A DNA stretch of 33,073 nucleotides. Source: Planctomycetia bacterium. GTDB lineage: Bacteria > Planctomycetota > Planctomycetia > Pirellulales > UBA1268. Under the pieces are notes generated by a model that had not been told where the DNA came from, made no database searches, and saw only the letters and a list, made by a program, of their open reading frames with translations. Below are positions 5,237-27,816 of the stretch, piece after piece; position 1 is the stretch's first letter, and each line of letters opens with the position of its first letter. A program made the translations under genes and the position numbers. Where the stretch lies: positions 1 through 33,073 of the forward strand of contig JBAWVV010000003.1 of NCBI GenBank assembly GCA_037147115.1. The letters are read 5' to 3'.

Positions 5237-5362
5237 TCGCTGGTCGGGGGAGATTTCGCCCTGAACCACGGTGGCCGGAGGGCCGTAGGGGGTGGGCCAT
5301 TCACCCCGCGTGGCGTGGCCTCCGTCCCGACGGGTCGGTTGGCTGTCGCGAGCGGCCTGGTC

Positions 5363-11304: not shown

Positions 11305-12243
11305 TCACAGGCTGTCGGCGGGCCTCTGCGGGCAGCAGCGGCACGCCTCCTCGGACTCCAGTTGGATCGTCGTGTGGGCGATGCCGAAGCGGGCGCGGAG
11401 ATCGTCCGACGCCGTGGCGAGCACCTGCTCGTGTCCATCCTGTTGGGGAACGACGAGGTGGACCGTCAGCGAGATCTCCGAGGTGCTCGCATTCCAGACG
11501 TGGAGATCGTGGACTTCGCTCACCCCCGGGATCGCGGCAAGGAGGTCGGTGATGGCGGCCGGCTCGATTCCCCGCGGCACGGCGTCGAGGGCGAGATCGA
11601 TGCTTTCGCGGAGCAGTCCCCAGGTGCCGGCGAGGATTGCCAGCGTGATCGCGATCCCCACCAGCGGATCGATCCAATTGATCCCGGTGAACGCGATCAC
11701 GATCCCCGCCACGACCACCCCGGCCGAGACGGCGGCATCGGCCGCCATGTGGAGGAAGGCCCCGCGGACGTTGGCGTCGGTGTGCGAACCGCGGAGGAAG
11801 AGGAGCGCCGTCAGCGTGTTGATCACGACACCGGCCGCGGCCACGATCCCCACCCATGGCCCCGCCACGGAGACCGGATCACGGAGGCGGTGGATCGCCT
11901 CCCAGAGGATGCCGCCGCAGGCAACGATCAGGAGCAAGGCGTTGGCCAGGGCGGCATAGATCGTCGACCGGCGGAAGCCCCAGGTGTAGCGGTTGGTCGG
12001 TGGGCGGCGGGCGAGGCGGGAGGCGCCCCACGCCAGGAGGAGGCCGACCACGTCGCCGGCATTGTGACCGGCATCGGCCACCAGCGCCAGCGATCCCCCC
12101 CACAGTCCGGCGGCGATCTCGACGAGCACAAAAGCCGCATTCAGACCGACGCCGATGGCCATCGCCCGGTCGAGCCGCTCCGGTGAGAAGTGCCGGTGGC
12201 CGCCGTGGCCTGTTCCGTCGCGGTGGTCGTGATCGCAGGGCAT
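11305..12243 (-). CDS. czcD: Cation diffusion facilitator (Zn/Co/Cd efflux, CzcD/ZitB-like)
   Basis: His-rich N-terminus MPCDHDHRDGTGHGGHRH, SLALVADAGHNAGD, YTWGFRR, NVRGAFLHMAAD, VHDLHVW, HTTIQLE; start 12243 (alternative 12270). Confidence 0.92.
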   Translation of the reverse strand: MPCDHDHRDGTGHGGHRHFSPERLDRAMAIGVGLNAAFVLVEIAAGLWGGSLALVADAGHNAGDVVGLLLAWGASRLARRPPTNRYTWGFRRSTIYAALANALLLIVACGGILWEAIHRLRDPVSVAGPWVGIVAAAGVVINTLTALLFLRGSHTDANVRGAFLHMAADAAVSAGVVVAGIVIAFTGINWIDPLVGIAITLAILAGTWGLLRESIDLALDAVPRGIEPAAITDLLAAIPGVSEVHDLHVWNASTSEISLTVHLVVPQQDGHEQVLATASDDLRARFGIAHTTIQLESEEACRCCPQRPADSL

Positions 12244-13558: not shown

Positions 13559-14458
13559 ATGCGCGCGCGATTCCCCGTCGTCATCCCTTTTCTCCTGGCC
13601 GCGATGTTCACCATCGGGTCCGACGGCGCGTCGGCCGTCGACGCGGATCGTGACATCCGCCTCTGGCCGGAAGGGGTGCCGGGGGATCGGGTGCCGGAGG
13701 AACCGGCCGAGAAGGTGGAGCGGGGGAAGGACGACATCCAGCGCCGGTCATTCGTCTCCGATCCCCGCCTCATCCTCCATCCTCTACCGCCACGCGACGA
13801 TGGGCCCCGTCCGGCGGTGATCATCCTCCCCGGTGGGGGATACAACATCCTTGCCGATGACCATGAGGGGGGGGAGATCGGCCGGTTCCTGAATGGGCAT
13901 GGCATCGTCGCCCTCACCCTCCTCTACCGGGTTCCCACCGGTGCCTTCGCGAATCCCGACGCCGGGCCGGTGATGGATGCCCAGAAGAGCGTTTCGGTGG
14001 TCCGCGGGCGGGCCCTCGAACTGGGGATCGATCCGGACCGCATCGGGCTGATGGGTTTTTCCGCGGGGGGCCACACGGCGCTGGTGGCTGCCACCACGAA
14101 GGCGTCGTTCCCGGGGGCCGACGCCGCCCCGTCAGCGCGTCCTGATGCCACGATCCTTGTCTACCCGTGGCGCGTGCTTGGCAATGAAGGCAAGGGGCTG
14201 TGGCCGGGGGTCGAGATCGACGCCGCCACCTCCCCGATGTTCATCGCCCAGACCGCCGACGACACCGCTTCGCCGGCAAAGGGGGCGGTGGCGCTGTTTG
14301 CCGCGCTGCTCGACGCGAAAGTGCCGGCCGAACTGCACGTCTACGAGCGCGGGGGGCATGGCTACGGCCTGCGGCGCCGTGAGCAGTCTCCGGGCACCGC
14401 CGACTGGCCGGCGCGTCTGGTCGATTGGCTCGGCGGCCGCGGATTCACGCGGCCGTGA
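13559..14458 (+). CDS. Secreted alpha/beta hydrolase (carbohydrate esterase-like)
   Basis: Signal-like MRARFPVVIPFLLAAMF…; ILPGGGY, GLMGFSAGGH (GxSxG), QTADD, ELHVYERGGHGYG. Only the 3' part of ORF 12449..14458 looks coding. Confidence 0.9.
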   Translation: MRARFPVVIPFLLAAMFTIGSDGASAVDADRDIRLWPEGVPGDRVPEEPAEKVERGKDDIQRRSFVSDPRLILHPLPPRDDGPRPAVIILPGGGYNILADDHEGGEIGRFLNGHGIVALTLLYRVPTGAFANPDAGPVMDAQKSVSVVRGRALELGIDPDRIGLMGFSAGGHTALVAATTKASFPGADAAPSARPDATILVYPWRVLGNEGKGLWPGVEIDAATSPMFIAQTADDTASPAKGAVALFAALLDAKVPAELHVYERGGHGYGLRRREQSPGTADWPARLVDWLGGRGFTRP

Positions 14459-14480
14459 CGGCGGCGTTGAACGCGCTTGG

Positions 14481-14517
14481 AAAACAGCGACACCCCGTCC
14501 GAAGAGACGGGGTGTCG
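14481..14517 (-). terminator. Rho-independent terminator for the small lipoprotein gene, possibly bidirectional
   Basis: 12-bp perfect stem cgacaccccgtc/gacggggtgtcg (14488-14517), UUCG-containing loop on the minus strand, followed by CUGUUUU; lies between convergent genes. Confidence 0.8.
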
Positions 14518-14567
14518 GAGAAAGTCGTCGGTGCCGAGGATCCAAACTTGGACGTGGCAACCTGCGG

Positions 14568-14828
14568 TCAGTTGCAGCAGCCGTCGGCCGGGACCGGGGT
14601 GGCAGCCTTGAGAGCGGCTGCTTCCTTGGAGAGTTTGAACTCTGGTCCGGCCGGGAAGTATTGGATGTCGTCCTGGAGGTAGTAGGCGCTGGGGAGCGTC
14701 TGCCCACCAATGTCGACCTGACAACCCGTCAGCCCGACGCTGGCCAGGGCCAAGCCCCCCAGCAGGGCCGCGCGGACGTCGAGCCGGGTCGTGGTCCGGG
14801 TCCGCCGGTCCGCAGTCGATGATCTCAT
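14568..14828 (-). CDS. Small lipoprotein (86 aa) of unknown function
   Basis: Arg-rich n-region, hydrophobic stretch, lipobox LTG-C, then QVDIGGQTLPSAYYLQDDIQYFPAGPEFKLSKEAAA; has its own terminator; resembles a conserved planctomycete family from memory. Confidence 0.82.
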   Translation of the reverse strand: MRSSTADRRTRTTTRLDVRAALLGGLALASVGLTGCQVDIGGQTLPSAYYLQDDIQYFPAGPEFKLSKEAAALKAATPVPADGCCN

Positions 14829-14920
14829 GGTTCTCGCCCCTGCATCGGTGCTTTGTTCCGCGTCACGGTTCGCTGTCGGGCCAGGCCCGGCAGGGTCGAT
14901 CCGCCGCCGACCGCAGTGGT

Positions 14921-14947
14921 ATCGGCCGACAGAACCGGCAAACTTTG
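14921..14947 (-). promoter_or_regulatory. Putative sigma28 (FliA/WhiG)-like promoter CAAAGTTTGCC-N10-GCCGAT
   Basis: Matches the wza upstream motif at 16 of 17 positions with the same spacer; similar to TAAAGTTT-N11-GCCGATAA. Confidence 0.6.
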
Positions 14948-15023
14948 ACAAACCGTTGCGATCGTTCGAAACGGCGCCAGCGGAGCCCCCCGGCTGCCCG
15001 ACGTTTCCCAGACTACCGGTCAG
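14925..15023. repeat. Degenerate 9-bp-period array
   Basis: CG dinucleotides at 14927, 14936, 14954, 14963, 14972, 14981, 14999 and 15017 (8 of 11 in-phase slots); units such as accggcaaa, accgttgcg, aacggcgcc, accggtcag. Confidence 0.55.
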
Positions 15024-15058
15024 TCGAAGGTCTGACGGCGGGCTGGGATTCCTCGTCA

Positions 15059-15077
15059 CCGACCCGACTCGGGTCGG
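15059..15077. promoter_or_regulatory. Perfect 9-1-9 palindrome, a possible operator or hairpin
   Basis: ccgacccga-c-tcgggtcgg, 20 nt upstream of a TACAAC -10-like hexamer (15097-15102). Confidence 0.4.
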
Positions 15078-15109
15078 CGGGCACGTGGGGAAGGTGTACA
15101 ACTGGCGGC

Positions 15110-18100
15110 ATGTGGCGCGTTGTTCCCTGGCAGTCGCTGTTCCGCCGATCGGCCGCGATCCTCGCGGTGACGGGCCTGTTGAGCCTGGGGGTGGCCCGGG
15201 CCCAGATCGTGCCCCGCGGGGCCCAGACCGTGCCGACGATCGCCTTTGATGCCGCGCTTGCAGCGCTGGCCAACGGCGACTTTAGCGTGGCCCTGGAAAC
15301 GGCCGGCCGGGATTACGGGGCGGGGGTCCGCGCCGGGAATCAGCGCTGGATCGACTCGATCGCCTCCGCCACCGCGATCGGTGAATCGCAGTACGAACTC
15401 GGCAACTGGCGGGATTCCGTCGCCGCTTACGAGGAGGCGATCGGCCTCGGCACAGCGCATGCCGAGTGGTTGCTGGCGGTCCAGTTTCCGACCCAAGGAC
15501 CGCAGCCTTCACCGCGCCCGCGCGTGGCCACCTGGGGGCGGAGCGCGCGGGGCACCAAGCCGGCAACGTTTCCCGACACGATGACGATCCGGCAGACGGC
15601 GGCCGATCCCCAAAAAGTGCTCCAGCAGGGGGGAGTGCTCGCGGCCCCGGTCAATGTTCCGATCCGTCCTCATGAGATCATGCGGGCCCTCGTGATCGCG
15701 ATCTACCGTCGGGCCGTGATCCTCGGGCCGCTTGCCGGCGAGGGGAATGCGATCGAGGGGTTGAACAACGCCCTTGCGAAGCGCCCGGCACCCCCGAACC
15801 ACTGGTCGCAGTCGTGGATCGACGTGGCACTGGGAACCGCGGCATGGTCGCAGGGCCGGCTCGATCAGGCGGTGCCGCTGCTCGAACGCGGCGTGGCCCT
15901 GGGCGGCAAACTCGATCACCCGTTGACCGCCTGGGGCCTGCTCGTGCTCGGACGGATCGCGCTGGCCCGCGACGATTCCATCGGCGCGGCGCGGTGGTTC
16001 GAGGAGGCGACCTACGCGGCGGCCGAGTTCGGCGATGCCCGTGCGCTCGAGGAGGGATTCCGGATGGCGTTCGCCGCTCACCAGGCTGCCGGCACGCCGG
16101 GGGTGCCGGCAACGGTCCACGGGGGCTGCGAGTGGGCCCGCGGTGGATTGCCCGCGCTGCGGACCACCCTCCTGGCGCACGAAGCGGAGGCGTTGGCTGC
16201 CGCTGGCAATCTTCAGGGGGCGCGGGCCCGGCTCGGAGAGGTCGACGCCAGGTTTCTCCGCACGGATGCCGGCCAGGGGACGCCGGGCGCCGTCGTCGCG
16301 CATGCCGCGGCCCTGACGGCGTACGGCGCCGGCGATCCGACCACGGGGGATGCCGAGATGGAGCGCGCCCTGACCATGGCCCGCCCCCGTTCCCCGCGCC
16401 TCTTCCAGACCGGCCGGCTCGTAGAGATGGTGATGGCCGGGGCGACGACGATCTCCGACCGGCAGGCAGACGTGCTCTTTGCGCGGCTCCTCGGCGACCC
16501 GCCGCCGCGGGAGCTTGTCATCGATCCTCTGGCCACGCTCGCGGCGATGACGACGCCCCGCCCCGAGGCCCACGAAGCGTGGATGTTGGTCGCGGCGCGC
16601 CGTGGCAGCGATCCGGCCCTGGCCGCCGCGGAGGCCTCGGCCCGGGCCCGGTGGCTCGACACGCAGCCGGTCGGGGGGCGACGGCTGGGGCTCGAGCGTC
16701 TCCTCGGCCCCGATCCGTCCGGGCTGGGGCCTGACGCCGTCGCCGGCCGGACGGGACTCTTCAGACGCCATCCGGAACTGGCCCGACTCGTCGACGAGGA
16801 TGCCCGCCTGCGGACGGCGCTGACTGCCGCGCTCCTTGCCTCCGCCGGCGGGAATGGTGGCGGCGACGCCGGTCCGCCGCGCCGGGCCGGTCCGCCGGGA
16901 GAGCTGAGGGATTGGGAATCGTTCGCGCAGGGCTCGGCCCGACGCGGGGTCTTGATCGATCAGCTCGCTGCCGGCCGGGAGCCGATCGGGCTCGAGTTTC
17001 CCCCACTCCTCCCCCCGGCCGATGTCCGTGGAAGGTTGGCGCCGGGCGAACTGCTCCTCTCCTTTCATTGGGGCGCGTCGGGGCTGTGGGGGGCGCTGGA
17101 GTCTCGCGACCGCGTCGCCCTGTGGCAGGTCCGGCAACCGGCGGCCCTGGCCCGGGAGCTAACCCACCTAGCGAAGGCCCTGTGTCTGTTCGACCCCCAC
17201 GTGCCGGTGGGGACTGATCGGATCATCGCTTCCGACTGGCGGGCCGCGATGGTCACCGTCGAACGACTCCTCTTCGAGCAGTCGAAGGTCACCCTCTCGG
17301 ATGGGATCGACGAGCTCGTGATCGTGCCCGACGGAGCGCTGTGGTATCTGCCGTTCGAACTCCTCCCGACCGGTTCCGCCGGCGAGCCCGCCGACGGCGA
17401 TGCGGCGACCGTCGAGCCGCCGCCGCTCCTGCGAGACGTCTGCCGTATCCGCTACGCCCCCACCCGCAGTCTGGCCGTCGCTGGCAGGCCACCGGCGCCG
17501 TTGGAACCGCCGGCCGGGCGTGGGCCCGTCGGCATCCATGCCGGCCGGGCCGTTCGCGGGGAACGGCCGGAGGCGATCGGGGAGGCGGTCGACCGCCTCA
17601 CGCAGGCCCTCGAACGCGCCGTCGTCCTCCCGGCCCAGCCACTCCAGCAGCATGGTGTCGTCGTCTCGCCGTTGCTCCCGGCTTCGTTGTGCGAGACGCT
17701 CGTGGTCCTCGACGAGATCAATGTTGCCGGTGAGGGGGCGGTGGGCTTGCGCGGCCTGTTCGGTCGTCCGCCCGACCGTGGAGCCAAGTCGGGGATGACG
17801 TTCAACGATTGGCTCGCTTCGCCGCACAAACGTCCCCCACTGGTCATCCTGCCGGGGGTCCAGTCGGCGATGGCCTCGGGGCTCACCAAGCTGCAGTCCC
17901 GGCCGGGGGAAGAGCTGTTCATCGCCGCCACCGACGTGCTGGCCGCCGGCGCCCGCACGGCGCTGGTCAGTCGCTGGCGGATGGGGGGAAAGTCGACCAC
18001 CGATCTCGTGGCCGAGCTCGTCCGCGATAGCGACGATCCGACGGCGATCCCGGCGGCAAGTTGGCGGCGGGCGGTCGATCTGGTCTCCGCTGAGGAGCCC

Positions 18101-18310
18101 GATCCGGCGTTCGAGGGGCGGATCCGGGGGGTTGGCCAGACGGTACTGACCGACATGCGTCACCCGTTGTTCTGGGCCGGCTACATGCTCATCGACGGCG
18201 GGATCAGCGCCCCGGTCGAAGCGGCCGCGGTGAAGGGCATCGGCGGCCGTCCGGCCGCGTTGCCGGCGGCAGGCAAGCGCGATCCGGCGGCCGTCCGGGG
18301 GGCGAAGTGA
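15110..18310 (+). CDS. Large secreted helical/TPR-like protein with a degenerate C-terminal CHAT (caspase-like) domain
   Basis: Signal peptide …AAILAVTGLLSLGVARA-Q from ATG 15110; CHAT hallmarks DELVIVPDGALWYLPFELL, GARTALVSRW, HPLFWAGYMLI. Confidence 0.85.
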   Translation: MWRVVPWQSLFRRSAAILAVTGLLSLGVARAQIVPRGAQTVPTIAFDAALAALANGDFSVALETAGRDYGAGVRAGNQRWIDSIASATAIGESQYELGNWRDSVAAYEEAIGLGTAHAEWLLAVQFPTQGPQPSPRPRVATWGRSARGTKPATFPDTMTIRQTAADPQKVLQQGGVLAAPVNVPIRPHEIMRALVIAIYRRAVILGPLAGEGNAIEGLNNALAKRPAPPNHWSQSWIDVALGTAAWSQGRLDQAVPLLERGVALGGKLDHPLTAWGLLVLGRIALARDDSIGAARWFEEATYAAAEFGDARALEEGFRMAFAAHQAAGTPGVPATVHGGCEWARGGLPALRTTLLAHEAEALAAAGNLQGARARLGEVDARFLRTDAGQGTPGAVVAHAAALTAYGAGDPTTGDAEMERALTMARPRSPRLFQTGRLVEMVMAGATTISDRQADVLFARLLGDPPPRELVIDPLATLAAMTTPRPEAHEAWMLVAARRGSDPALAAAEASARARWLDTQPVGGRRLGLERLLGPDPSGLGPDAVAGRTGLFRRHPELARLVDEDARLRTALTAALLASAGGNGGGDAGPPRRAGPPGELRDWESFAQGSARRGVLIDQLAAGREPIGLEFPPLLPPADVRGRLAPGELLLSFHWGASGLWGALESRDRVALWQVRQPAALARELTHLAKALCLFDPHVPVGTDRIIASDWRAAMVTVERLLFEQSKVTLSDGIDELVIVPDGALWYLPFELLPTGSAGEPADGDAATVEPPPLLRDVCRIRYAPTRSLAVAGRPPAPLEPPAGRGPVGIHAGRAVRGERPEAIGEAVDRLTQALERAVVLPAQPLQQHGVVVSPLLPASLCETLVVLDEINVAGEGAVGLRGLFGRPPDRGAKSGMTFNDWLASPHKRPPLVILPGVQSAMASGLTKLQSRPGEELFIAATDVLAAGARTALVSRWRMGGKSTTDLVAELVRDSDDPTAIPAASWRRAVDLVSAEEPDPAFEGRIRGVGQTVLTDMRHPLFWAGYMLIDGGISAPVEAAAVKGIGGRPAALPAAGKRDPAAVRGAK

Positions 18311-19212
18311 TGCCCCTTCCGCTGGCTGCCGACATCGCCTCGGTCGGAGGGGCGTCGAACGCTTTCCCTCCGGAGCAACTGTTGCTCCTCGCCGCCACCA
18401 CCTTCATCGCCGCAGCGGTCAACGCCGTGGCGGGGGGGGGCACGATCCTCACCTTCCCGGTCGTGGCGGCGATCCTCCCTGATGGCCCGGCCGGACTCGT
18501 CGCCGCCAACGCGACCAGCACCCTCGGCCTCTGGCCCGGCGCGATCGCCGCCGCCTGGGCGGGGCGTGCCGAGTGGGATTGCCAGCCGCGCTTGACCAGC
18601 TTGACCAGCTTGACCAGCTTGACCCGCTGGCTTCTGCCGGCGAGTGTCGGCGGGGCGATCGTCGGCGCCGCGCTGCTGCTGGCGCTGCCCTCGGCTTGGT
18701 TCGGCCGGCTCGTCCCCTGGCTCATCCTGAGTGCGGCGGTGTTGTTCACGCTCCAGCCGCACCTCGCCGCCCGCCTCGCCGCTGGCGACCAGGGGTCCAC
18801 CCCCAACGGCGAGCCGACCCGCGGGGTGTTTTTCCTCGCCTGGGGACTCCAGTTCTTGGTGGCTGTCTATGGCGGGTATTTCGGCGCCGGGATCGGCATC
18901 CTCATGCTCGCCGTCCTGGGGTGCCTCGGGGTGGGGGACATCCACCGGCTCAACGCCGTCAAGAATCTCCTTGCGACGGCGGTCAACGGCACCACGGCAG
19001 TCGTGTTCGCCTCCGCTTCGATCCTCCCGACCAGCGTCGGGGGGAGGGGCGGCATCGTCTCCTGGCCGCTGGCCCTGATGATGGCGCTGGCGTCGATCTC
19101 CGGCGCGGTGGTTGGCGTGCGATTGATGCGGCGGATGCCGGCGCCGGTGGTGCGCCGGATCGTGGCCCTCATCGGTTTCGGCCTGGCAGGCTATTATTTC
19201 CTCCGAGGCTGA
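18310..19212 (+). CDS. TauE/SafE (TSUP) family transporter
   Basis: NAVAGGGTILTFP, ANATST, YGGYFGAGIGILMLA, LNAVKN; overlaps the upstream stop. Confidence 0.92.
   Translation: MPLPLAADIASVGGASNAFPPEQLLLLAATTFIAAAVNAVAGGGTILTFPVVAAILPDGPAGLVAANATSTLGLWPGAIAAAWAGRAEWDCQPRLTSLTSLTSLTRWLLPASVGGAIVGAALLLALPSAWFGRLVPWLILSAAVLFTLQPHLAARLAAGDQGSTPNGEPTRGVFFLAWGLQFLVAVYGGYFGAGIGILMLAVLGCLGVGDIHRLNAVKNLLATAVNGTTAVVFASASILPTSVGGRGGIVSWPLALMMALASISGAVVGVRLMRRMPAPVVRRIVALIGFGLAGYYFLRG
18591..18624 (+). repeat. 9-bp in-frame tandem repeat cttgaccag x~3.8 (LTS LTS LTS LT)
   Basis: cttgaccag cttgaccag cttgaccag cttgacc. Confidence 0.92.
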
Positions 19213-19237
19213 TGTCCCAGGTCTTGCCAGGCGGTCG

Positions 19238-20113
19238 ATGCTCGTCGAAGCGGATCAACTCACGAAGCGGTATGGCCCGTTCACGGCGCTCGAGGGCTGC
19301 TCGTTGGCCGTCCGTCAGGGGGAGGTGTTCGGCCTCCTCGGCCCCAACGGCGCGGGGAAGACGACCTTCCTCCGCCTCCTTCTCGGCTTCATTCATCCCA
19401 CCTCCGGCACGGCCCGGGTGGCAGGGCACGACTGCGTTCTTGATTCGCTCGCCGTCAGGGCTGCGACCACCTATCTCCCTGGGGAGGCCCGCCTCTTTCG
19501 CCGGATGACGGGCCATCTGGTCCTCGATTTCTTCTCACAATTGCGCCGCGAATGTCGCCGTGACGAGGCCACACGCATTGCCCGGCGCCTCGATCTTGAC
19601 TGTTCGCGCCAGGTCGCGCGGATGAGCACGGGCATGCGGCAGAAACTCGCCCTGGCCGTCGTCCTCGCTACCGAGGCGACCCTCGTGATCCTCGACGAGC
19701 CGACGGCGAACCTCGACCCGACGGCCCGGGCGGTCGTCCTCGATCTCGTCCGCGAGGCGCAGGCGGCCGGTCGGACGGTGATGTTCTCTTCGCACGTCCT
19801 TTCCGAGGTCGAGGCAACCTGTGACCGCGTCGTGATCCTCCGGGCAGGGCGGGTCGTCCACGAGCAGTCGGTCGCGCAGCTCCGTCGCCATCATCGCATC
19901 ACCGCCCGGCTCGAGGGGGATTTTGGAGAGGTGCCGGCGGAACTCCGCGAGCATGTCACCGTTACCCGCGACCGCGACGGCAGGATCGTCCTCGAGACAG
20001 CCGATTCGTTGCGGCCGCTCCTCGGCTGGCTCTCGACGCTTCCTCTCGGTGAGATCCGGGTCGACCCTGTCGGGCTCGATGCCGTCTATGACCGTTTTCA
20101 TCGCCATGGGTGA
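19238..20113 (+). CDS. ABC exporter ATP-binding protein
   Basis: Walker A GPNGAGKTT, signature MSTGMRQK, Walker B VILDEP, FSSH switch. Confidence 0.95.
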   Translation: MLVEADQLTKRYGPFTALEGCSLAVRQGEVFGLLGPNGAGKTTFLRLLLGFIHPTSGTARVAGHDCVLDSLAVRAATTYLPGEARLFRRMTGHLVLDFFSQLRRECRRDEATRIARRLDLDCSRQVARMSTGMRQKLALAVVLATEATLVILDEPTANLDPTARAVVLDLVREAQAAGRTVMFSSHVLSEVEATCDRVVILRAGRVVHEQSVAQLRRHHRITARLEGDFGEVPAELREHVTVTRDRDGRIVLETADSLRPLLGWLSTLPLGEIRVDPVGLDAVYDRFHRHG

Positions 20114-20948
20114 CCGCGTGTGGAATACCGCCATCTGGCGCAAAACCTGGGGTGACCAGCGCGGGCTCGTGCTGGCGTTTGCGGCGCTTTGGGGCGTGTT
20201 CCCCTGGCTGTTCCTTTGGCTGTCGGCGCAGATTCCGATGCTGGCATTCCAGGACGTGCTCCTTCAGGCGATCCCGAAGGACTGGCAGCGGCTCTCCGGG
20301 GTGCCATTCTCCGACGTTGCGACCCACGCCGGCCGGGTGGCACTGGCCTTCGTCGATCCGGTCGTCGTGCTCGCGGCGACGGTCTGGGGGATCACCCGGG
20401 GGAGCGATGCCGTGTCGGGGCAGCTCGAACGGGGCACGATGGAGTTGCTCCTCGCGCAGCCGGTGCGGCGCCGGGCCCTGTGGGTGACACAGGCGCTGGC
20501 GACGACCGCGGCGGCGGCCTGCCTGTGCGGCGTGCTGGCCCTCTCGGTGTGCGCTGCTGTGGCCTACGGCCCGTGGGCCGGCAAGGTCGAGCCGGGTCGA
20601 TTCCTCCTCCCGGTCGCCAATGTCTTCGGCCTGATGGTCTGCCTGGCCGGGATCTCCGCCTGCGTGTCGGCGGCCGACAGCTATCGCTGGCGGACGATCG
20701 GCGTGATGTCCGGTTTTTACGTCTTCTCCCTCTTGGCGAAGCTCGTCGGCCGAATGAGCGGGGCGTTCGGCTGGGTCGGCTACCTCTCCTTTCTGAATGC
20801 CTACGAACCGCAGCGGCTGGTCGGGGACGCCGCGGCGAGCTGGACGAATCTCCTCGTCTATGACGGCATCCTCCTCGGCGTCGGGGGCGTGGCGTACGTC
20901 ATCGGCGGCGTGATCTTCTGCCGTCGCGACCTCCCCGCCCCCCTGTGA
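20106..20948 (+). CDS. ABC-2 type exporter permease
   Basis: Six TM segments, VSGQLERGTMELLLAQPVRR, C-terminal FCRRDLPAPL; start ATG 20106 or GTG 20118. Confidence 0.9.
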   Translation: MGDRVWNTAIWRKTWGDQRGLVLAFAALWGVFPWLFLWLSAQIPMLAFQDVLLQAIPKDWQRLSGVPFSDVATHAGRVALAFVDPVVVLAATVWGITRGSDAVSGQLERGTMELLLAQPVRRRALWVTQALATTAAAACLCGVLALSVCAAVAYGPWAGKVEPGRFLLPVANVFGLMVCLAGISACVSAADSYRWRTIGVMSGFYVFSLLAKLVGRMSGAFGWVGYLSFLNAYEPQRLVGDAAASWTNLLVYDGILLGVGGVAYVIGGVIFCRRDLPAPL

Positions 20949-21083
20949 TGCGCCGGCAGCGCCCGCCGCCGTTTTCCCCGTCCGCCGATCCGTCTGGCCC
21001 CAAGGGTGGGGCCCGTCGCATACTGAGGGGACAGGGGATGCCGATCTGTCCGGCCCCCATGGCCCCCTCGAGGATACGACTCG

Positions 21084-22892
21084 ATGAACGTTCTCCCGCG
21101 TGCCAGCCGTTTCCTGCCGCCGTCGTCGCAGCGTTCGGATCGCCACCGTCGCGGCCGGTGGTTCCTGGCTGCGGCATCGATCCTGCTGGACCCAGCGGCG
21201 TGCCTCCCGCTCCACGCCGATGAACCGGCCGTGGAGAGTGCCTCGGCCGCGGCGGCGGGGCAGGAGGATCTCGATGCGGCTGTCGATGCCAAGCTGGCGG
21301 CCCGGTCCCTCGATGATTTCGAGCGGGTCCTCGGGCTGGTCCGAGCCGCCCTCCGGAAAGGGCTCGAGGAGTCTTCGCGGGGGTTCGCCAACGACCTCTA
21401 CACCGGCACGCTGGTCGATCGGGCGTCGATGCTCACCGAGGCACTGTTCGACGGCGCCCCGGGGGCCCAGCAGCAATGGGAGCGGATGCGGGCTTACGCG
21501 CTGCGCGATCTCGGGGAGGTGGTGCAGCGCGACGACACGCTCGCTGCGGCGCACGTGATGATCGCCCGCCTCGAGGCGCTCCCCGGGGGGGATCGGCAGC
21601 GGGCCGTGAGCTCTGCCCGCCGCGCGGTCGACCTCAGCGGCGACGACCCGCTGCAGACGGCCCAGGCCCACGTTGTGCTGGGGAATCTCGCCGAGGATGA
21701 TCTGCCGGCTCGCCGTGCCGACTACGACAAAGCGGTCGAACTCGCCCCCCGGGATGCCGATGTCCGACGGACGCGTGGTCTGTTCCTGATGATGGAGGGA
21801 GATCAGGACGGTGCCCTGGCGGACTTCGACGTGGCGATCGAGGAGGATCCGGACGATGTCCGGATCCGTGAGATGCGCGGCCTGTCGCTGCTCATGGCGC
21901 AGCGGACCGACGACGCCCTCAAGAACTTCGACGACGCCCTCGAACTTGCCCCCGACTCCGCCGACATCCTCTTCCAACGCGGGCGGGTGTTTGCGTCGCA
22001 GGGAAACCTCGAGCGTGCGATGGCCGATCTCGATCGGGCGATCGCCACGGTCCCCGATGCGGACGAGCCCCGCGTCCTCCGGGCCCGGTTGCACCAGCAG
22101 GCTGGCAGCACTGACGACGCCCTCGCCGACATCGCGCACGTGCTCGCCCGCGACCCCGACCACCGCTCGGCCCTCGAGCTTCGCGCCCTGCTCGCAGCTG
22201 ACCGGGGGGATTATCCGTCGGCGATCGCCGACTTCCGTCGACTCGTCCGCCAGAGCCCCAACGACGCCGTCGTCGTCGGCCAACTCGGCTTCCTCTACCT
22301 CGCAGCCAAGGAACCAAGAGAGGCGATTCGCCGCTTCAATCGAGCCTTGGAGATCGATCCAGAGCAGTTTCTCGCCCGGCGCGGACGCGGGGATGCCGAA
22401 ATCTCCATCGGCGATCACGCCGCAGCGCTCGCCGACCTCGAAAAGGCCATGGAACTGCAACCGGACAACGACACGGTCCTCAACAATCTCGCTTGGGTGC
22501 TCGCCACGAGTCCGGACGATGCGGTCCGGGACGGCAAGCGGGCCATTGGGATTGCCGTGAAAGCCTGCGAATTGACCGAATGGAAGCAGCCGCACGTGAT
22601 CAGCACGCTGGCTGCGGCCCACGCCGAATCGGGGGATTTTGACGAGGCAAAGAAATACAGCCGGCAGGCCGTTGACGGGAGTGACGAGTCGTCTGAGGTC
22701 CGCGACCAGCTGAAGAGCGAACTGGCAAGCTACGAGGCGGGGAATCCGTGGCGCGAGCGGCAGTCGATGGAAGAAGGGGAAGGGCGCGGGGAGGGGGGAA
22801 GTCGCGGGCCGGAGAAAGATCCGCCGGCGAAACCGGAGCCGACGGACCCTGGCCCGAAGCCCGGCGCGCGTCGCCCCTTCGACGACGACTGA
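21084..22892 (+). CDS. Exported tetratricopeptide repeat protein
   Basis: Signal-like N-terminus ending PLHA-D; many TPRs (ALADFDVAIEEDP, AMADLDRAIATVP, ALADLEKAMELQP); NNLAWVLATSPDDAVRDG…TLAAAHAESGDF cap. Confidence 0.92.
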   Translation: MNVLPRASRFLPPSSQRSDRHRRGRWFLAAASILLDPAACLPLHADEPAVESASAAAAGQEDLDAAVDAKLAARSLDDFERVLGLVRAALRKGLEESSRGFANDLYTGTLVDRASMLTEALFDGAPGAQQQWERMRAYALRDLGEVVQRDDTLAAAHVMIARLEALPGGDRQRAVSSARRAVDLSGDDPLQTAQAHVVLGNLAEDDLPARRADYDKAVELAPRDADVRRTRGLFLMMEGDQDGALADFDVAIEEDPDDVRIREMRGLSLLMAQRTDDALKNFDDALELAPDSADILFQRGRVFASQGNLERAMADLDRAIATVPDADEPRVLRARLHQQAGSTDDALADIAHVLARDPDHRSALELRALLAADRGDYPSAIADFRRLVRQSPNDAVVVGQLGFLYLAAKEPREAIRRFNRALEIDPEQFLARRGRGDAEISIGDHAAALADLEKAMELQPDNDTVLNNLAWVLATSPDDAVRDGKRAIGIAVKACELTEWKQPHVISTLAAAHAESGDFDEAKKYSRQAVDGSDESSEVRDQLKSELASYEAGNPWRERQSMEEGEGRGEGGSRGPEKDPPAKPEPTDPGPKPGARRPFDDD

Positions 22893-22902
22893 CCCCGGTT
22901 GC

Positions 22903-23634
22903 TCAACGCCCCGGCTCCGTTGAGCCGGGCGACCGGCGGGGGGACGATTTCGCCAGCCGTTCGAGCGATTCCAGCCGGAGCGAGGCCGCCCGAGCGGCAT
23001 GGATGTTGCCGGCCCGCTGCCAGGCGCGGATCGTCAGGCCCTGGGCCAGGATCGCCACATCGTAGCGGTGATCGACCTCGGCACGCGTCGCCACGCCCGC
23101 GGCTGCGTTGGCGAGGTCGGACGCCCGCCCCGGATCGATGGCTCGCAGCGGGATCTCGAGGAGCGAGCGGTATTCGACGGCCAGGGCGTCGAAGTCGAAC
23201 TCGGCCGACGCGACCCGCACCGACCGCCCGACGACGAGGGGGCTGCCCGCGGAGATGGCCAGTTTCCTGGCCTCCTCGAGGATCACCCACTTCACCGCCG
23301 GGTCGGATTCACCGGCCGCCTCTGCCATCAGTGCTTCGGCCAGCAGGAGTGTGGCGGAGGAGGTCCGCACCCGCGCCGCCGGATTCCCGTAGCGCTGTCG
23401 AAACTCCGACCGGGCATCGACAAGGGCTCGCTGCGACGGGACGGCCCCACTTGCTTGCGACGGAGCCAGCGTTTGCATCCGTGGCCGCTCCGGGCGCGGC
23501 TCGTTCTTCCCGTCTTCGATCGAAGGCGGGTCGGCCCGGGCGCCGGGCCGACTGGAGGCATCTGGGGAGGGCAGCCACACGGTCATGCCGAGCATGGCAA
23601 GCGCGAACCGCCAGAAGGCGCAGGAGCGTTTCAA
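22903..23634 (-). CDS. Hypothetical exported alpha-helical protein
   Basis: TTG start overlaps the upstream stop (TTGA, suggests coupling); hydrophobic N-terminus; helical region LLLAEALMAEA…DPAVKWVILEEARKLA..AG…FDFDAL. Confidence 0.65.
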   Translation of the reverse strand: MKRSCAFWRFALAMLGMTVWLPSPDASSRPGARADPPSIEDGKNEPRPERPRMQTLAPSQASGAVPSQRALVDARSEFRQRYGNPAARVRTSSATLLLAEALMAEAAGESDPAVKWVILEEARKLAISAGSPLVVGRSVRVASAEFDFDALAVEYRSLLEIPLRAIDPGRASDLANAAAGVATRAEVDHRYDVAILAQGLTIRAWQRAGNIHAARAASLRLESLERLAKSSPRRSPGSTEPGR

Positions 23635-24047
23635 CGATTGCCGGGATAGAAATGGGAGGTGTTTTGGAACGTCGCACTGTGGCCGGTGGACCGGATCGTG
23701 TTGTACATCTGACCGCTGTTACCACCACCGCGTTGGATCGAGCGGACCTGCCCCTGCACACCGTTGAGTTGCCTTCCGAGGCTCACCTGCTGCTGGACCT
23801 GGGAGGCTTGAAGTTGCTGCGGCCGAACGAGATTTTGCAGCGCCCCGAGCGTGCCGCCGGTGTTGGGATTGTCCCCCTGGAAACCGAGCGCGGTGTAGGG
23901 GCTCAAGCCCCTCCGGCCGGTGTAATCGGAGAACGGCATCCGACCCTGTTGGGCCGCGGCGGTCGAAGCGAACGTGCCGACCAGAAGCAGCGCCGTCACG
24001 GGCAACGCGATCCGCCAGGCCATCGAGAACGTCTTGCGGTGGGGCAT
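23631..24047 (-). CDS. Small secreted Gln/Gly/Asn-rich protein
   Basis: RBS GGAGA 8 nt before ATG 24047; signal peptide ending STAAA-Q; motifs LSPY..L, LVRPQQ, TGHSATFQNTSHFY. Confidence 0.8.
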   Translation of the reverse strand: MPHRKTFSMAWRIALPVTALLLVGTFASTAAAQQGRMPFSDYTGRRGLSPYTALGFQGDNPNTGGTLGALQNLVRPQQLQASQVQQQVSLGRQLNGVQGQVRSIQRGGGNSGQMYNTIRSTGHSATFQNTSHFYPGNR

Positions 24048-24090
24048 GGAAGCAATCTCCGGGCAAGGGGGGATTTGGTCGGCTGAATCT

Positions 24091-24118
24091 ATTCTACGCC
24101 TGGCAGCGACGATTGCAC
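24091..24118 (-). promoter_or_regulatory. Putative sigma70-type promoter (GTGCAA-N16-TAGAAT) for the 24047 gene
   Basis: Minus-strand TAGAAT 44 nt upstream of the start codon in the wza-24047 intergenic gap. Confidence 0.4.
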
Positions 24119-24153
24119 GGTCTCGGGAGCGAGGCTCGGCGGAAAGGGGCATT

Positions 24154-25548
24154 TCAGCGAGGGAACTCGGCGTGGGGAACAGCCACCTTCGTGTCGATCC
24201 CCCAGCGTTCAGCAAGTTCGGCTCCGCGGAAGGCGAGGATCGTGTCCATGACCGTCCGCACGGCCAGTTTCGCCGCCGGCTTGTCATGGATCCAGGCGGC
24301 GAAGGCCTCACCATGGGTGGCGTAGGTGTCACGCAGCCAGATGGGGGCCTCGGTCAGCAACCAGGCCCGGAAGAGCAGCCAGTTGGGGTTTTCCTCGCCA
24401 TACACCTCGCGGGCAACCCAGCAGATACCACCGCCGAAGTTGGAACCACGCTGGAACGTGTAGACCGTCTGGGCACCGAGGAGCGTTGACCCCATGATCT
24501 GCTCGAACGGCGCGGTGACCTTCTCGATGATGTTGTTGAAGGCGATCCACGGATCCTGGGCGATGAACAGGCGGTCGCCAGGGAGGAGTTGGTAGTTGGT
24601 CGCCGTGGCGCCCCCCCTCATGATCGCGTCGATGTCGACCGGCAGAACCTGATCACAGCCGATCCCTGACGGGGCCGGCCGGGCGATCCAGATCTCCTTG
24701 CTGGAGAGCTTTGAGAGCCCGTTGATCTGAGCGATGGCGTCGAGCACGGTCTCGTTGCCGGTGACGGGAAACTTGGCGACATTGTCCCCCTGCCCCGCTC
24801 CCTCCGTGATCACATAATAGACCTTCGAGTTGTAGCTAAAGACGTCAACGCTCACGAGCGGCGCGTCGAGGAACTTGTCGAGTTGGGCCTCGATCACCTC
24901 CTTCGCCTCCGCGAGCGTCAACCCGGTAACGTAGACGCTCCCGTAGGTGCCGAGATTGACCGTGCCGTCCGGGCCGACAAGATGCTCTCCGGTCACCTGC
25001 TGCTGCCCCGCGGCCTGGGCGAGCGTGAGCGAGACCTGCGGCTCCCGCAGCACGCGCTTGAGGTGACGAAAAACGGCATCCTGGGCCTCGTCGAGCGATT
25101 TGCCACCGACGGCAACCTTCCCGTAGGAGGGGCCGAGGTCGAGGAGGCCGCCCGGTTCAACGACATAGATCCCGTTGATCGGTTGTTCGAGGAGGGTTCC
25201 CTCGACGATCACCTGGAGCGAATCGAACGACTGGATCCGGAACGGCGGCTTCGGCACGATCCGCAGCGCGTCGATGAGGAGGATGTCCGGCGGTTCGATG
25301 ACGTAGGGAGGGAGCGACACCTTCGCCAGTTCCTTCGCGGGCATCTTGGCAGGATCGCCATCGCAATTGGCAGCGAGGGTGGCCTCGTGGGACGCCGTCC
25401 GCTGGGGGCGGCCGTAGATGTTGCAGCCAACGCTCGTCAGGAGCAGCAGGGCCGCCACGAGGAGGCGCACCACACCCGTCAGGTCGGAGAGGGTGGGCTG
25501 CAGGCATCCCGCGGCGATGGGGACTTTTTGGTGGCGATTTCGGGGCAT
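24154..25548 (-). CDS. wza: Polysaccharide export lipoprotein (Wza/OPX family) with an additional C-terminal Cys-initiated domain
   Basis: RBS AAGGAG 6 nt before ATG; lipobox SVG-C; PYVIEPPDIL; two Poly_export-like repeats (VEPGGLLDLGPSYGKVAVGGKSL; VGPDGTVNLGTYGSVYVTGLTL); SLBB GNETVLDAIA; NYQLLPGDRLFI; amphipathic helix; then GGGICWVAREVYG domain. Confidence 0.9.
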   Translation of the reverse strand: MPRNRHQKVPIAAGCLQPTLSDLTGVVRLLVAALLLLTSVGCNIYGRPQRTASHEATLAANCDGDPAKMPAKELAKVSLPPYVIEPPDILLIDALRIVPKPPFRIQSFDSLQVIVEGTLLEQPINGIYVVEPGGLLDLGPSYGKVAVGGKSLDEAQDAVFRHLKRVLREPQVSLTLAQAAGQQQVTGEHLVGPDGTVNLGTYGSVYVTGLTLAEAKEVIEAQLDKFLDAPLVSVDVFSYNSKVYYVITEGAGQGDNVAKFPVTGNETVLDAIAQINGLSKLSSKEIWIARPAPSGIGCDQVLPVDIDAIMRGGATATNYQLLPGDRLFIAQDPWIAFNNIIEKVTAPFEQIMGSTLLGAQTVYTFQRGSNFGGGICWVAREVYGEENPNWLLFRAWLLTEAPIWLRDTYATHGEAFAAWIHDKPAAKLAVRTVMDTILAFRGAELAERWGIDTKVAVPHAEFPR

Positions 25549-25564
25549 GCCTCACTCCTTGCCG

Positions 25565-25652
25565 GCCGTTCACTTCGGCGTCATCGGAATCATCGGCACC
25601 CTGGCATGGCAGACTTTGCCGATTTTGCCGGTTTTGCCGCCTGTGCCGGATC
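25565..25652. repeat. Two oppositely oriented 9-bp-period arrays flanking the putative wza promoter
   Basis: Left arm ttcggcgtc atcggaatc atcggcacc (CG at 25567/76/85/94); right arm ttgccgatt ttgccggtt ttgccgcct gtgccggat (CG at 25620/29/38/47). Confidence 0.75.
25592..25618 (-). promoter_or_regulatory. Putative sigma28 (FliA/WhiG)-like promoter CAAAGTCTGCC-N10-GCCGAT for wza
   Basis: 44 nt upstream of the wza ATG; near-identical copy at 14921-14947. Confidence 0.6.
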
Positions 25653-25806
25653 GTGGCGGGGCCGGCGTCCCGGCCGAAAAGACGGCGACAGGCCTCCCCT
25701 TCCGCTCCGGCCCGTCCCGTTCATTGTTTCCCGGCTGAAATCCCCCTACCTTTTGGAGTCGCGGCAGGGTTCGCCCCGCCGGATGCCGCAGCCTCCCTGG
25801 CTTCCC

Positions 25807-27816
25807 ATGACGTCCGCCTCCGCCCATCCCCGCTCCCCTGCCCCACTCCGTCCTCGCGGCGGGGGGCTGCGCGCGGGCATTCTCGGTCTTCGCGCGGGAA
25901 CGGCGTCGATGCTGCTGGTGCACATCGGGCTGTTTTTCGCCGTCTGGTTCGCCTCCTTCCTGACCCGTTGGGACTTCCAGCCCGATGCCCCGATGGTGGC
26001 GATGTTTCGTGCCACGGTCGTCTGGGTCGTCGTCGTGAAGACGATCGTGTTCCTCCTCCACGATCAGTTCCGCTGGCGGTTCGGCAGGCTGTCGTTCGCC
26101 GATCTCGGCCGGCTCGCCTTCACCACGACCCTGGCCACCCTGACGCTGGTCGCGGTCGACGTCGTCCGGGAGGCCGTCGGTGTGCTCCCCGGGCTCGGCC
26201 AGAGGCTCCCCCGAAGCGTGATGGTGATCGATTGGGCGGCGACGATGCTCCTCATCGGCGGCCTCCGTGCGCTGCCGCGGACGATCCGCGAGGTGTTCAG
26301 ACCATGGATCACCAGCGGCGACGTCCGTTCAGCTCTGATCGTCGGCGCCACGGAGACCGGCGAGCTCCTCGCGCGGAATCTCGCGGCCCACCACGCGCCG
26401 TCGTACATCGTCGTCGGCTTCCTCGACGACAACGTCCTTCTCGGCGGTTCGAGGATCGCCGGGCTCCGCGTGCTCGGCCGCGTCGATGACGCGAGGAAGG
26501 TGCTGCGGCAGCGCCCGGTCGACGAGATCCTCGTCACGGCCGGGGAGCTCCCGAGGTCGGTGTTCCGCCGGCTCCTGAGCGATGCCGCCGAGTTCGGCGC
26601 GAACGTGAAGGTGATCCCATCGATGGGCGAACTGCTCGCCTCGGGAGGGGCCGTCGCCTCCCCGAACGTCCTGCGGCCGGTCGAGATCCGCGATCTCCTC
26701 CGCCGGGAACCGGTCGTTCTCGACGACTCGGCGATCGAGGGAATCGTCCGCGACCGCGTGGTCCTCGTCACCGGAGGAGGCGGGTCGATCGGGTCGGAGA
26801 TCTGCCGACAGGTGCTCCGTTACCGTCCGCGCCGGCTCGTCGTCGTCGAGCGTGCCGAGAACGCTCTGTTCGACGCTGAGAACGGCCTGGTGTCGCTGCG
26901 GACGGGGGTGCCGATGGCGTTCGTTCTTGCCGACATCCTCGACGAATCGCGGATCAGGAATGTCTTCGACACCGAGCGGCCCGAAGTGGTGTTCCACGCG
27001 GCGGCCCACAAGCATGTCGCGATGCTCGAGCAGAACCCCGGGGAAGCGGTCACGAACAACTGTTTCGGCACCCGGTTGCTCGTGCGTCTGGCCGAGGAAT
27101 ACGCCGTCGGGCGTTTCGTTGCCATCTCCACCGACAAGGCGGTGAAGCCGTCGAGCGTGATGGGATGCTCGAAACTCCTCGCCGAGCGGTATGTCCAGGC
27201 GTTCGCGGCCACGGCACGGACGACGTTCGTCGTCGTCCGTTTCGGCAACGTCCTCGGGAGCAACGGCAGCGTGGTGCCGAAGTTTCAGGAGCAGATCCTC
27301 CGGGGGGGCCCGGTGACCGTCACCGATCCTGACGTCGAGCGGTTTTTCATGACGATTCCCGAGGCCGCGCAACTCGTGATCCAGGCCACCGCAATCGGGA
27401 AGGGGGGAGAGATCTTCCTCCTCGACATGGGGCCCGCGGTGAAGATCGTCGACCTCGCCCGCGACATGATCTCCCTTTCCGGCTGCGACGAGGAGGAAAT
27501 CGGAATCGAGTTCACCGGACTTCAGCCGGGAGAGAAGCTCGCCGAGGAGCTGATCTCCGCGGAGGAGCAGAGGGTGCAGACATGGCATCCCAAGGTATGC
27601 TGTGTCATCGGACCAAAGGCGGTCCTGGAGGAGATTGAAGACCAGTTCGACCGGCTCCACGCGCTTCCCGGCGAACCCCCGGACGTGATCCGTGAATCCC
27701 TCCAGCGGATCGTCCCCGAATACCGGCCAGCGATGCCGCCCCGGGGCACCGTCGGGGCAGTTCCCGGCGACCGATTTTCCGCAGCCATCACAGAAAGGCC
27801 TGCCCGTGGCGGCTGA
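25807..27816 (+). CDS. Membrane-bound UDP-GlcNAc 4,6-dehydratase (PglF/WbpM/CapD family), copy 2
   Basis: N-terminal TM segments, LIVGA, VGFLDD, IRDLLRRE, TGGGGSIGSEICRQ, HAAAHKHV, STDKAVKPSSVMGCSK, RFGNVLGSNGSVVP, RFFMTIPEA, PGEKLAEEL; start ATG 25807 (alternative 25783). Confidence 0.94.
   Translation: MTSASAHPRSPAPLRPRGGGLRAGILGLRAGTASMLLVHIGLFFAVWFASFLTRWDFQPDAPMVAMFRATVVWVVVVKTIVFLLHDQFRWRFGRLSFADLGRLAFTTTLATLTLVAVDVVREAVGVLPGLGQRLPRSVMVIDWAATMLLIGGLRALPRTIREVFRPWITSGDVRSALIVGATETGELLARNLAAHHAPSYIVVGFLDDNVLLGGSRIAGLRVLGRVDDARKVLRQRPVDEILVTAGELPRSVFRRLLSDAAEFGANVKVIPSMGELLASGGAVASPNVLRPVEIRDLLRREPVVLDDSAIEGIVRDRVVLVTGGGGSIGSEICRQVLRYRPRRLVVVERAENALFDAENGLVSLRTGVPMAFVLADILDESRIRNVFDTERPEVVFHAAAHKHVAMLEQNPGEAVTNNCFGTRLLVRLAEEYAVGRFVAISTDKAVKPSSVMGCSKLLAERYVQAFAATARTTFVVVRFGNVLGSNGSVVPKFQEQILRGGPVTVTDPDVERFFMTIPEAAQLVIQATAIGKGGEIFLLDMGPAVKIVDLARDMISLSGCDEEEIGIEFTGLQPGEKLAEELISAEEQRVQTWHPKVCCVIGPKAVLEEIEDQFDRLHALPGEPPDVIRESLQRIVPEYRPAMPPRGTVGAVPGDRFSAAITERPARGG

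Follow-up and report, generated by a model that had tools for sequence, protein, structure and literature searches.

Why should two envelope genes, in a bacterium whose family seemingly has no flagellum, be preceded by what looks like a flagellar promoter? The question is raised by a stretch of DNA of 33,073 nucleotides (nt), here called the window, which spans the entire contig C3 of a metagenome-assembled genome (5,067,751 bases in 856 contigs, 67% G+C, 89.9% complete). Close relatives of the Wza-like protein encoded in the window come from lakes and other fresh waters, and the organism is therefore treated as an uncultured freshwater member of the Pirellulales. A preliminary description had noted two copies of a bipartite motif on the minus strand, one upstream of a small lipoprotein gene (site 1) and one upstream of a gene for a Wza-like polysaccharide exporter (wza, site 2), and had proposed that a sigma factor of the FliA/WhiG family drives these genes. 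Comparative sequence analysis supports this proposal on four counts: the conservation of the motif, the single FliA of the genome, the motif at flagellar genes of relatives, and the genome-wide placement of the sites. We consider it likely, at a probability of roughly three in four, that RNA polymerase carrying the FliA homologue initiates at both window promoters. The two predicted promoters and their genes are as follows.

14921-14947, minus strand: predicted sigma-28-type promoter of the lipoprotein gene; −35 element CAAAGTTT at 14947-14940, 13-nt spacer, −10 element GCCGAT at 14926-14921, A at 14920.
14568-14828, minus strand: gene for an 86-residue lipoprotein (ATG at 14828), with the lipobox LTGC in its translation.
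25592-25618, minus strand: predicted sigma-28-type promoter of the Wza-like gene; −35 element CAAAGTCT at 25618-25611, 13-nt spacer, −10 element GCCGAT at 25597-25592, then G.
24154-25548, minus strand: gene encoding a 464-residue, Wza-like lipoprotein for polysaccharide export (OPX family; ATG at 25548; PF02563).

Read on the minus strand, site 1 (14947-14921) is CAAAGTTTGCC-N10-GCCGAT and site 2 (25618-25592) is CAAAGTCTGCC-N10-GCCGAT. Both copies lie where they had been reported, agree at 16 of the 17 specified positions and have unrelated 10-nt spacers; the likeness between the two sites is confined to the boxes. When up to two mismatches are allowed, the window contains two matches, both of them the known sites, and 100 shuffled versions with dinucleotides preserved averaged 0.00. 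The genome-wide scan proposed in the preliminary description returned two strict matches in the complete assembly, which are again the two window sites. Both are intergenic and in sense orientation, 92 and 43 nt from the respective start codons (the distances of 93 and 44 given earlier differ by counting convention only), and the genes behind them, as had been pointed out, are non-flagellar envelope genes. Long open reading frames (ORFs) on the plus strand overlap both sites, and these overlaps are 5′ extensions of a TPR-CHAT gene with a likely start at about 15110 and a CapD-like gene with a likely start at about 25783.

Conservation in orthologous upstream regions, which had been named as a check, extends across genus, family and order. 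Order-wide counts refer to 61 Pirellulales genomes; for flagellin, 37 genomes of the window's family (f1, own genome included) were compared with 24 other families. The upstream regions compared were those of the lipoprotein gene (30 loci of family f1 and 20 loci from 20 other families), wza (30 loci) and flagellin genes (19 loci), and they were searched with the footprint pattern AA[AG][GC][TC]NN-N12/13-GNCGAT or, at the flagellin loci, with ccTAAAG[TC]-N14-GNCGAT, the same 99 sequences, reversed or read antisense, serving as controls. The pattern occurs in sense orientation upstream of the lipoprotein gene at 24/30 loci of family f1 and 16/20 of the other families (40/50 in total), and upstream of wza at 22/30 loci; both the reversed and the antisense control gave 0/99. 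The −35 and −10 blocks of 21 unique wza promoters are conserved at 0.92 and 0.90, respectively, compared with 0.56 for the spacer. The distance from motif to start codon varies (41-113 nt for wza, 10-237 nt for the lipoprotein gene) and the inter-box spacing is constant at 12-13. The conservation pattern is the footprint of a two-box promoter, unlike that of an RNA element or a symmetric operator, and the order-wide model predicted for the promoter is (C/T)AAAGTYT, 12-13 variable bases, GNCGATA.

The boxes resemble those of sigma-28 promoters, for which the Escherichia coli consensus, in the available text of PMC2859248, is TAAAGTTT-n11-GCCGATAA. The extended −10 element reads GCCGATA at site 1, GCCGATG at site 2 and GNCGATA(A/C) at orthologous sites, close to GCCGATAA. 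As for the −35 element, CAAAGTTT of site 1 agrees with TAAAGTTT at 7/8 positions and CAAAGTCT of site 2 at 6/8. The spacer is 13 base pairs (bp) at both window sites, and the excess of 2 nt over this consensus, to which the preliminary description had drawn attention, is thus real with respect to the consensus as available.

A more direct connection is provided by flagellar genes of relatives. At flagellin loci of flagellated relatives, ccTAAAG[TC]-N14-GNCGAT is found 170-315 nt upstream in 12/19 cases, with a 12-bp spacer in all 12. Across five good genomes, AAAGTYT-N12-14-GYCGAT gave 35 matches, compared with 8 for the backward pattern. Thirty of these matches were examined. In three genomes, each from a different family, AAAGTTT-N12/13-GYCGAT stands directly 5′ of a FliMN_C (PF01052; FliN-like) gene; of the other matches, two are located 5′ of OEP (TolC-like) lipoprotein orthologues and two 5′ of the small lipoprotein gene. 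The presence of this type of motif at flagellin and FliN-like genes in relatives ties it to sigma-28. Since these genes also use a 12-13-bp spacer, the concern over the 2-nt excess is removed, and the long spacer appears as a trait of the order.

The genome encodes the sigma factor that the proposal calls for: one FliA/WhiG-family protein scores above the curated cut-off (TIGR02479, 261 bits versus 189.6; C175:6142-6807), and 10 further, weaker TIGR02479 matches are other sigma-70-family genes. A factor of the FliA/WhiG class above cut-off is present in 60/61 genomes of the order. Directly 3′ of fliA lies a FlgM-like gene (TIGR03824; its 32.4 bits, E 1.2e-7, fall short of the cut-off, 40.75), which is present in 58/61 genomes and adjoins fliA throughout family f1. 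The gene flhA, found in 61/61 genomes, is adjacent to fliA in the own genome, where flhA, fliA, the FlgM-like gene and a Fur-family gene are consecutive (C175:5467-8500); in a flagellated relative (G054) the gap between flhA and fliA is about 3.4 kb.

The flagellum itself appears to be missing from the family. Flagellin_N was detected in 0/37 genomes of family f1, versus 18/24 other families. The search for rod/hook and C-ring components covered four family f1 genomes, one of them a 5-contig assembly, and one flagellated control: FliMN_C (C-ring) was found in 0/4, versus 3 matches in the control, and Flg_bb_rod (rod/hook) in 0/4, versus 5 matches in the same control. FliP and FliF are each present in 4/4 family f1 genomes, and on the own contig C9 (1506-5825) fliF, an ORF resembling a fliO-fliP fusion, and fliR are consecutive. 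Family f1 has thus apparently lost the filament, rod/hook and C-ring and kept the FliA/FlgM-like switch together with the inner-membrane export gate, as far as gene content can tell; absence from metagenome bins is never proof of loss, but the count over 37 genomes is consistent, with the own genome at 89.9% completeness.

To place the two sites in the context of their own genome, a weight matrix was built from 58 unique sites upstream of lipoprotein, wza and flagellin genes and scanned against the genome and the reversed genome. Matches of at least 22 bits number 3 versus 0, of at least 20 bits 5 versus 1, and of at least 16 bits 20 versus 13. Site 1 ranks first (30.3 bits) and site 2 second (26.1 bits), both being members of the training set. 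The third match, from outside the training set (C79:12021-12049, minus strand), lies 199 nt 5′ of an OEP (PF02321) TolC-like lipoprotein gene that is the orthologue of the two motif-bearing OEP genes in flagellated families; by a relaxed pattern the site is kept in 27/29 loci of family f1, with 0 in the controls (locus L252 was excluded from this count, as its N-terminus is outside the locus). The fourth (C13:1150-1178, plus strand) is located 108 nt 5′ of a gene for an 82-residue protein and is kept in 27/30 loci, again with 0 in the controls. This gene is present in 56/61 genomes, its −35 box is [AGC]AAC[TC]TT, and its product matched no family in Pfam, NCBIfam or the protein Atlas. All four best sites are intergenic, in sense orientation and 5′ of conserved genes, a placement whose absence had been proposed as grounds for rejecting the idea. 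The fifth match (C34, 20.3 bits), inside a long coding frame, is probably due to chance, and the single CTAAAG-type match in the own genome (C21) was also taken as chance, as it appears within coding sequence.

Several observations weigh against a sigma-28 assignment. The pattern sought is unmatched at 10/50 lipoprotein, 8/30 wza and 7/19 flagellin loci, several of the unmatched lipoprotein loci showing a near-match by eye. The first base of the −35 element is C, not T, at the window sites, and according to the available text of PMC2859248 a T-to-C change at this base in the E. coli aer promoter cut activity from 223 to 23 units. Both window sites have a 13-bp spacer where the enteric consensus has 11 bp; on this point, the accessible part of PMC12784957 states that spacer length is non-conserved among sigma-28 promoters. 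In the own genome, matrix matches below about 20 bits are indistinguishable from the control and only about four promoters stand out, which amounts to a tiny regulon. A candidate site before the FlgM-like gene (C175:5971-6000, 16.1 bits) falls in the noise range and was not counted, and at the one other fliA locus of the family that was examined (L075) nothing of at least 13 bits was found. The proposed targets do not share a uniform −35 half, which reads AAAGTTT, CAAGTTT or [AGC]AACTTT; the last of these recalls the AAC core of promoters of the extracytoplasmic function (ECF) type. Another sigma factor may be equally universal in the order. As for public RNA data, one lake metatranscriptome held 45% of the sampled sequence words and another 10%, as contigs of related strains with the region in pieces; these records are assembled contigs without RNA ends or strand, and dependence on sigma-28 is deduced from comparison.

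The alternative that survives best is that the promoter is read by a different order-wide alternative sigma factor, ECF-type or other group 3, and that the likeness to sigma-28 promoters is convergent. A spacer that exceeds that of classical sigma-28 promoters by 1-2 nt would fit such a factor, as would the AAC-containing −35 box ([AGC]AAC[TC]TT) found at the 82-residue protein gene and at some sites 5′ of fliA, and the 10 weaker TIGR02479 matches indicate that the genome has several other sigma-70-family genes to choose from. However, the −10 element GCCGATA equals the extended −10 of sigma-28, as given in the source text available, almost base for base; flagellin and FliN-like genes of relatives, which are textbook sigma-28 targets, share the type of motif; and FliA is the sole FliA/WhiG-class factor of the genome, with a distribution in the order (60/61) that matches the spread of the promoter. 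We therefore regard a different sigma factor as improbable.

It could also be argued that the boxes are not a promoter at all, but operator half-sites for a regulator of envelope genes. Conserved bases do extend beyond the boxes, namely CGGTT 5′ of the lipoprotein −35 element, AATCG 5′ of that of wza, and a repeated CCGAT in the wza leader, and a regulator may therefore also act at these sites. As a replacement for a promoter the explanation is very improbable: neither half-site repeats the other, directly or inverted, their orientation is always sense (antisense 0/99), the distance to the start codon ranges over 10-237 nt while the box spacing is fixed at 12-13, and both boxes fit a known promoter class. 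Nor was any other promoter detected in these intergenic regions, a sigma-70-like promoter having been sought in 14400-15200 and 22700-26000 and none found. Finally, the notion that the two sites are alike by chance or through a shared repeat element, which could appeal to there being just two genomic copies on the same contig, is already refuted by the conservation data, each site being independently kept 5′ of its own orthologue in dozens of genomes, and is at odds with the shuffled expectation of 0.00 and with a likeness that ends at the two boxes.

In the sigma-28 reading, which we prefer, region 4 of the sigma factor would read (C/T)AAAGTYT and region 2 the extended −10 element GNCGATA. 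In the open complex of sigma-28 at the Pseudomonas aeruginosa fliC promoter, the −10 element spans −15 to −8 (PMC12784957, as far as its text is available). Transferred to the window, this geometry would put the start about 10 nt beyond the T of GCCGAT. The minus-strand starts predicted in this way are near 14911 and 25582, no more than 2 nt from the positions guessed in the preliminary description. The products would be a monocistronic lipoprotein mRNA, ended at a hairpin (14517-14488), and a wza mRNA with a short conserved leader. The features concerned are listed below.

14909-14914, minus strand: predicted transcription start of the lipoprotein mRNA, from the fliC open-complex geometry (PMC12784957).
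14488-14517, minus strand: terminator-like hairpin of 13 pairs, 9 of them G-C, with a T-rich tail, which closes the monocistronic lipoprotein unit.
25580-25585, minus strand: predicted transcription start of the wza mRNA, from the same geometry (PMC12784957).
25549-25591, minus strand: short wza mRNA leader with the family-wide consensus GATTCCGATGACGCCGATTTTACCGG, then AAGGAG before the ATG; this downstream flank is conserved at 0.75.

In flagellated Pirellulales, one promoter type would serve flagellin, FliN-like and envelope genes, and late flagellar and envelope genes would be expressed together, which would fit a daughter-cell programme of budding bacteria. In the window's family, the sigma-28 switch would survive as a regulator of the Wza-like exporter, the small lipoprotein, the TolC-like protein and the 82-residue protein, and this envelope part of the regulon may be what keeps the switch under selection. 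In Planctopirus, the available part of a paper on genetic tools (PMC11958385) describes fliA as presumed flagellar and cell-cycle regulated.

The FlgM-like protein probably restrains the activity of FliA. Enteric FlgM leaves the cytoplasm via the flagellar apparatus, and we may speculate that the FlgM-like protein exits via the relic export gate. Taken further, the sigma-28/FlgM switch and the relic gate (FliF, FliOP, FliR and FlhA) could have been kept as one unit, in which export of the FlgM-like protein frees sigma-28 for construction of the outer envelope (Wza-like exporter, TolC-like channel and small lipoprotein), perhaps in the newly budded cell. We put this forward as a conjecture that is doubtful as it stands; if true, a flagellar assembly checkpoint would have been converted into a checkpoint of envelope biogenesis.

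Four of the fliA loci, from four flagellated families (L069, L071, L079 and L080), have a weaker site of this promoter type 566-727 nt 5′ of the fliA match, with CAAC[TC]TT or a similar −35 element, 12 nt, and GCCGATAA. Possibly it marks a promoter subject to autoregulation, located within the preceding gene.

To our knowledge, almost nothing is known of promoters and alternative sigma factors in Planctomycetota, and a literature search, with most subscription journals outside its coverage, found no sigma-28 promoters or start-site maps for the phylum. Of the known systems, the class 3 flagellar promoters of E. coli, Salmonella and Pseudomonas, which depend on sigma-28, are alike in the two-box layout, the GCCGATA −10 element and the AAAGTTT −35 element, as far as the available texts describe them (PMC2859248, PMC12784957). 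Further likenesses are the cognate FliA with its adjacent FlgM-like gene, and the motif at flagellin genes of flagellated relatives. They differ in having an 11-bp spacer, compared with 13 here and 12 at the relatives' flagellin genes, and the first base of the −35 element here is C. Whereas class 3 promoters serve late flagellar genes, the window promoters precede envelope genes in a family without detected flagellin, rod/hook or C-ring.

Chlamydia belongs to the same superphylum (Planctomycetes, Verrucomicrobia, Chlamydiae; PVC) and keeps orphan flagellar export genes. The closest parallel, to judge from the available literature, is found in Chlamydia trachomatis, a non-flagellated bacterium in which sigma-28 has been kept for a very small non-flagellar regulon. 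Chromatin immunoprecipitation sequencing of sigma-28 in that species found two non-flagellar late promoters only, those of hctB and tsp, Tsp being periplasmic (PMC12282069, in the part available). Unlike Chlamydia, the organism described here is a free-living lake organism with a FlgM-like partner, and the targets are an exporter, lipoproteins and a TolC-like protein. The regulon, as predicted from sequence, is moreover kept beside true flagellar targets in flagellated sister families. The other comparable case is WhiG of Streptomyces, likewise a FliA/WhiG factor used for a developmental, non-flagellar programme: a representative of the sigma-28 family that serves sporulation genes in a non-motile host, it is held by RsiG with cyclic di-GMP (PMC12871210, in the text available). 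The partner here is FlgM-like, unlike RsiG as described in that source, and relic export-gate genes remain.

Altogether, the comparison supports a known class of promoter in a lineage-specific variant, with unusual, conserved non-flagellar targets in a family seemingly without a flagellum. It offers a concrete order-wide promoter model with a short list of conserved target genes, and an explanation for the retention of fliA, the FlgM-like gene and the export-gate genes where flagellar structural genes are missing from the family. Chlamydia, with its small non-flagellar sigma-28 regulon, would gain a free-living counterpart. The 86-residue lipoprotein, the 82-residue protein and the extended TolC-like protein are specific to Planctomycetota and worth study as order-universal and putatively co-regulated proteins, and the promoter could be a regulated part for planctomycete genetics.

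As for the genes and surroundings of site 1, a homologue of the 86-residue lipoprotein is present in 61/61 Pirellulales genomes, as a single copy in nearly all, and the ORF is therefore a real gene. The protein has no Pfam or NCBIfam match, and the Atlas gave only hypothetical proteins of Planctomycetota. Outside the Pirellulales it was found in 4/80 other genomes of the phylum that were searched; these four represent one family of the same class (4/4 of its genomes). Upstream of the gene in this extra-order family a similar GAAGANN-N12-GTCGATA can be recognized by eye, the pattern itself matching in 1/4.

Site 1 is located within a 650-nt gap between a plus-strand hydrolase gene (stop at 14458) and the plus-strand TPR-CHAT gene, and the terminator-like hairpin that closes the lipoprotein unit also stands just past the stop of the hydrolase gene. 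The TPR-CHAT gene (15110-18310, plus strand) encodes a secreted, caspase-like protein of 1066 residues and is divergent from the lipoprotein gene; its likely start at 15110 carries a signal peptide. The open frame reaches 290 nt 5′ of this start, over the lipoprotein promoter, and could mislead automatic gene callers. Both the own genome and 11 relatives, which represent several genera of the family, have the lipoprotein gene and wza on one contig, about 9.5-10.8 kb apart, and the two promoters therefore bracket a block of conserved spacing. In the window this block (14568-25548) contains TPR-CHAT, TauE, ABC transporter and TPR genes.

Site 2 lies in a gap of about 230 nt between wza and a diverging CapD/WbpM-like gene. 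Among the polysaccharide genes of the window (two Polysacc_synt_2, one Glycos_transf_4, one DegT aminotransferase, and wza) the motif is found at wza only. One further feature adjoins the promoter.

25612-25638, minus strand: a tandem array of three 9-nt units, GGCAAAACC, GGCAAAATC and GGCAAAGTC, which runs into the −35 box of wza and is shared within the genus.

These units could be an upstream element or a site for a regulator. In other families, AATCG is often found just 5′ of the −35 box in this type of promoter.

Another conserved region is the leader of the OEP gene (C79, about 11822-12020, minus strand; loci L237-L266). About 200 nt between promoter and start codon are strongly conserved in the family and contain long complementary segments (an inner hairpin enclosed by an outer helix of about 15 pairs), suggestive of a regulatory RNA with secondary structure. 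Rfam, at the gathering threshold, gave no match in the window or in the OEP locus.

A repeat is present in the 4.8-Mb flagellated relative G054, where contig C1 contains the 27-nt unit CTAAAGCCTTCACCGAAAAGCGGCGAT about 80 times, on both strands (for example at 5238-5264 and 19761-19787) and often in pairs spaced by 300-450 nt. The unit has the look of a dispersed repeat or a miniature mobile element. It happens to match the flagellin-type pattern, and counts of CTAAAG-type patterns in this genome are uninformative, being flooded by this unrelated repeat family.

The Wza-like protein has a signal peptide that ends in SVGC, and matches Poly_export (PF02563) at 72.8 bits, compared with a cut-off of 28. 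The NCBIfam models for polysaccharide export remain below cut-off, the best at 66.3 versus 180 bits, and the protein is therefore a distant member of the OPX family. It has an extra C-terminal domain, which is absent from ordinary Wza proteins. The C-terminal segment of about 75 residues (about 365-445; window 24154-24460) is 67-71% identical to a segment of very large ORFs (about 1500-1650 residues) in many relatives and to a fragment on the own contig C442 (3227-3448).

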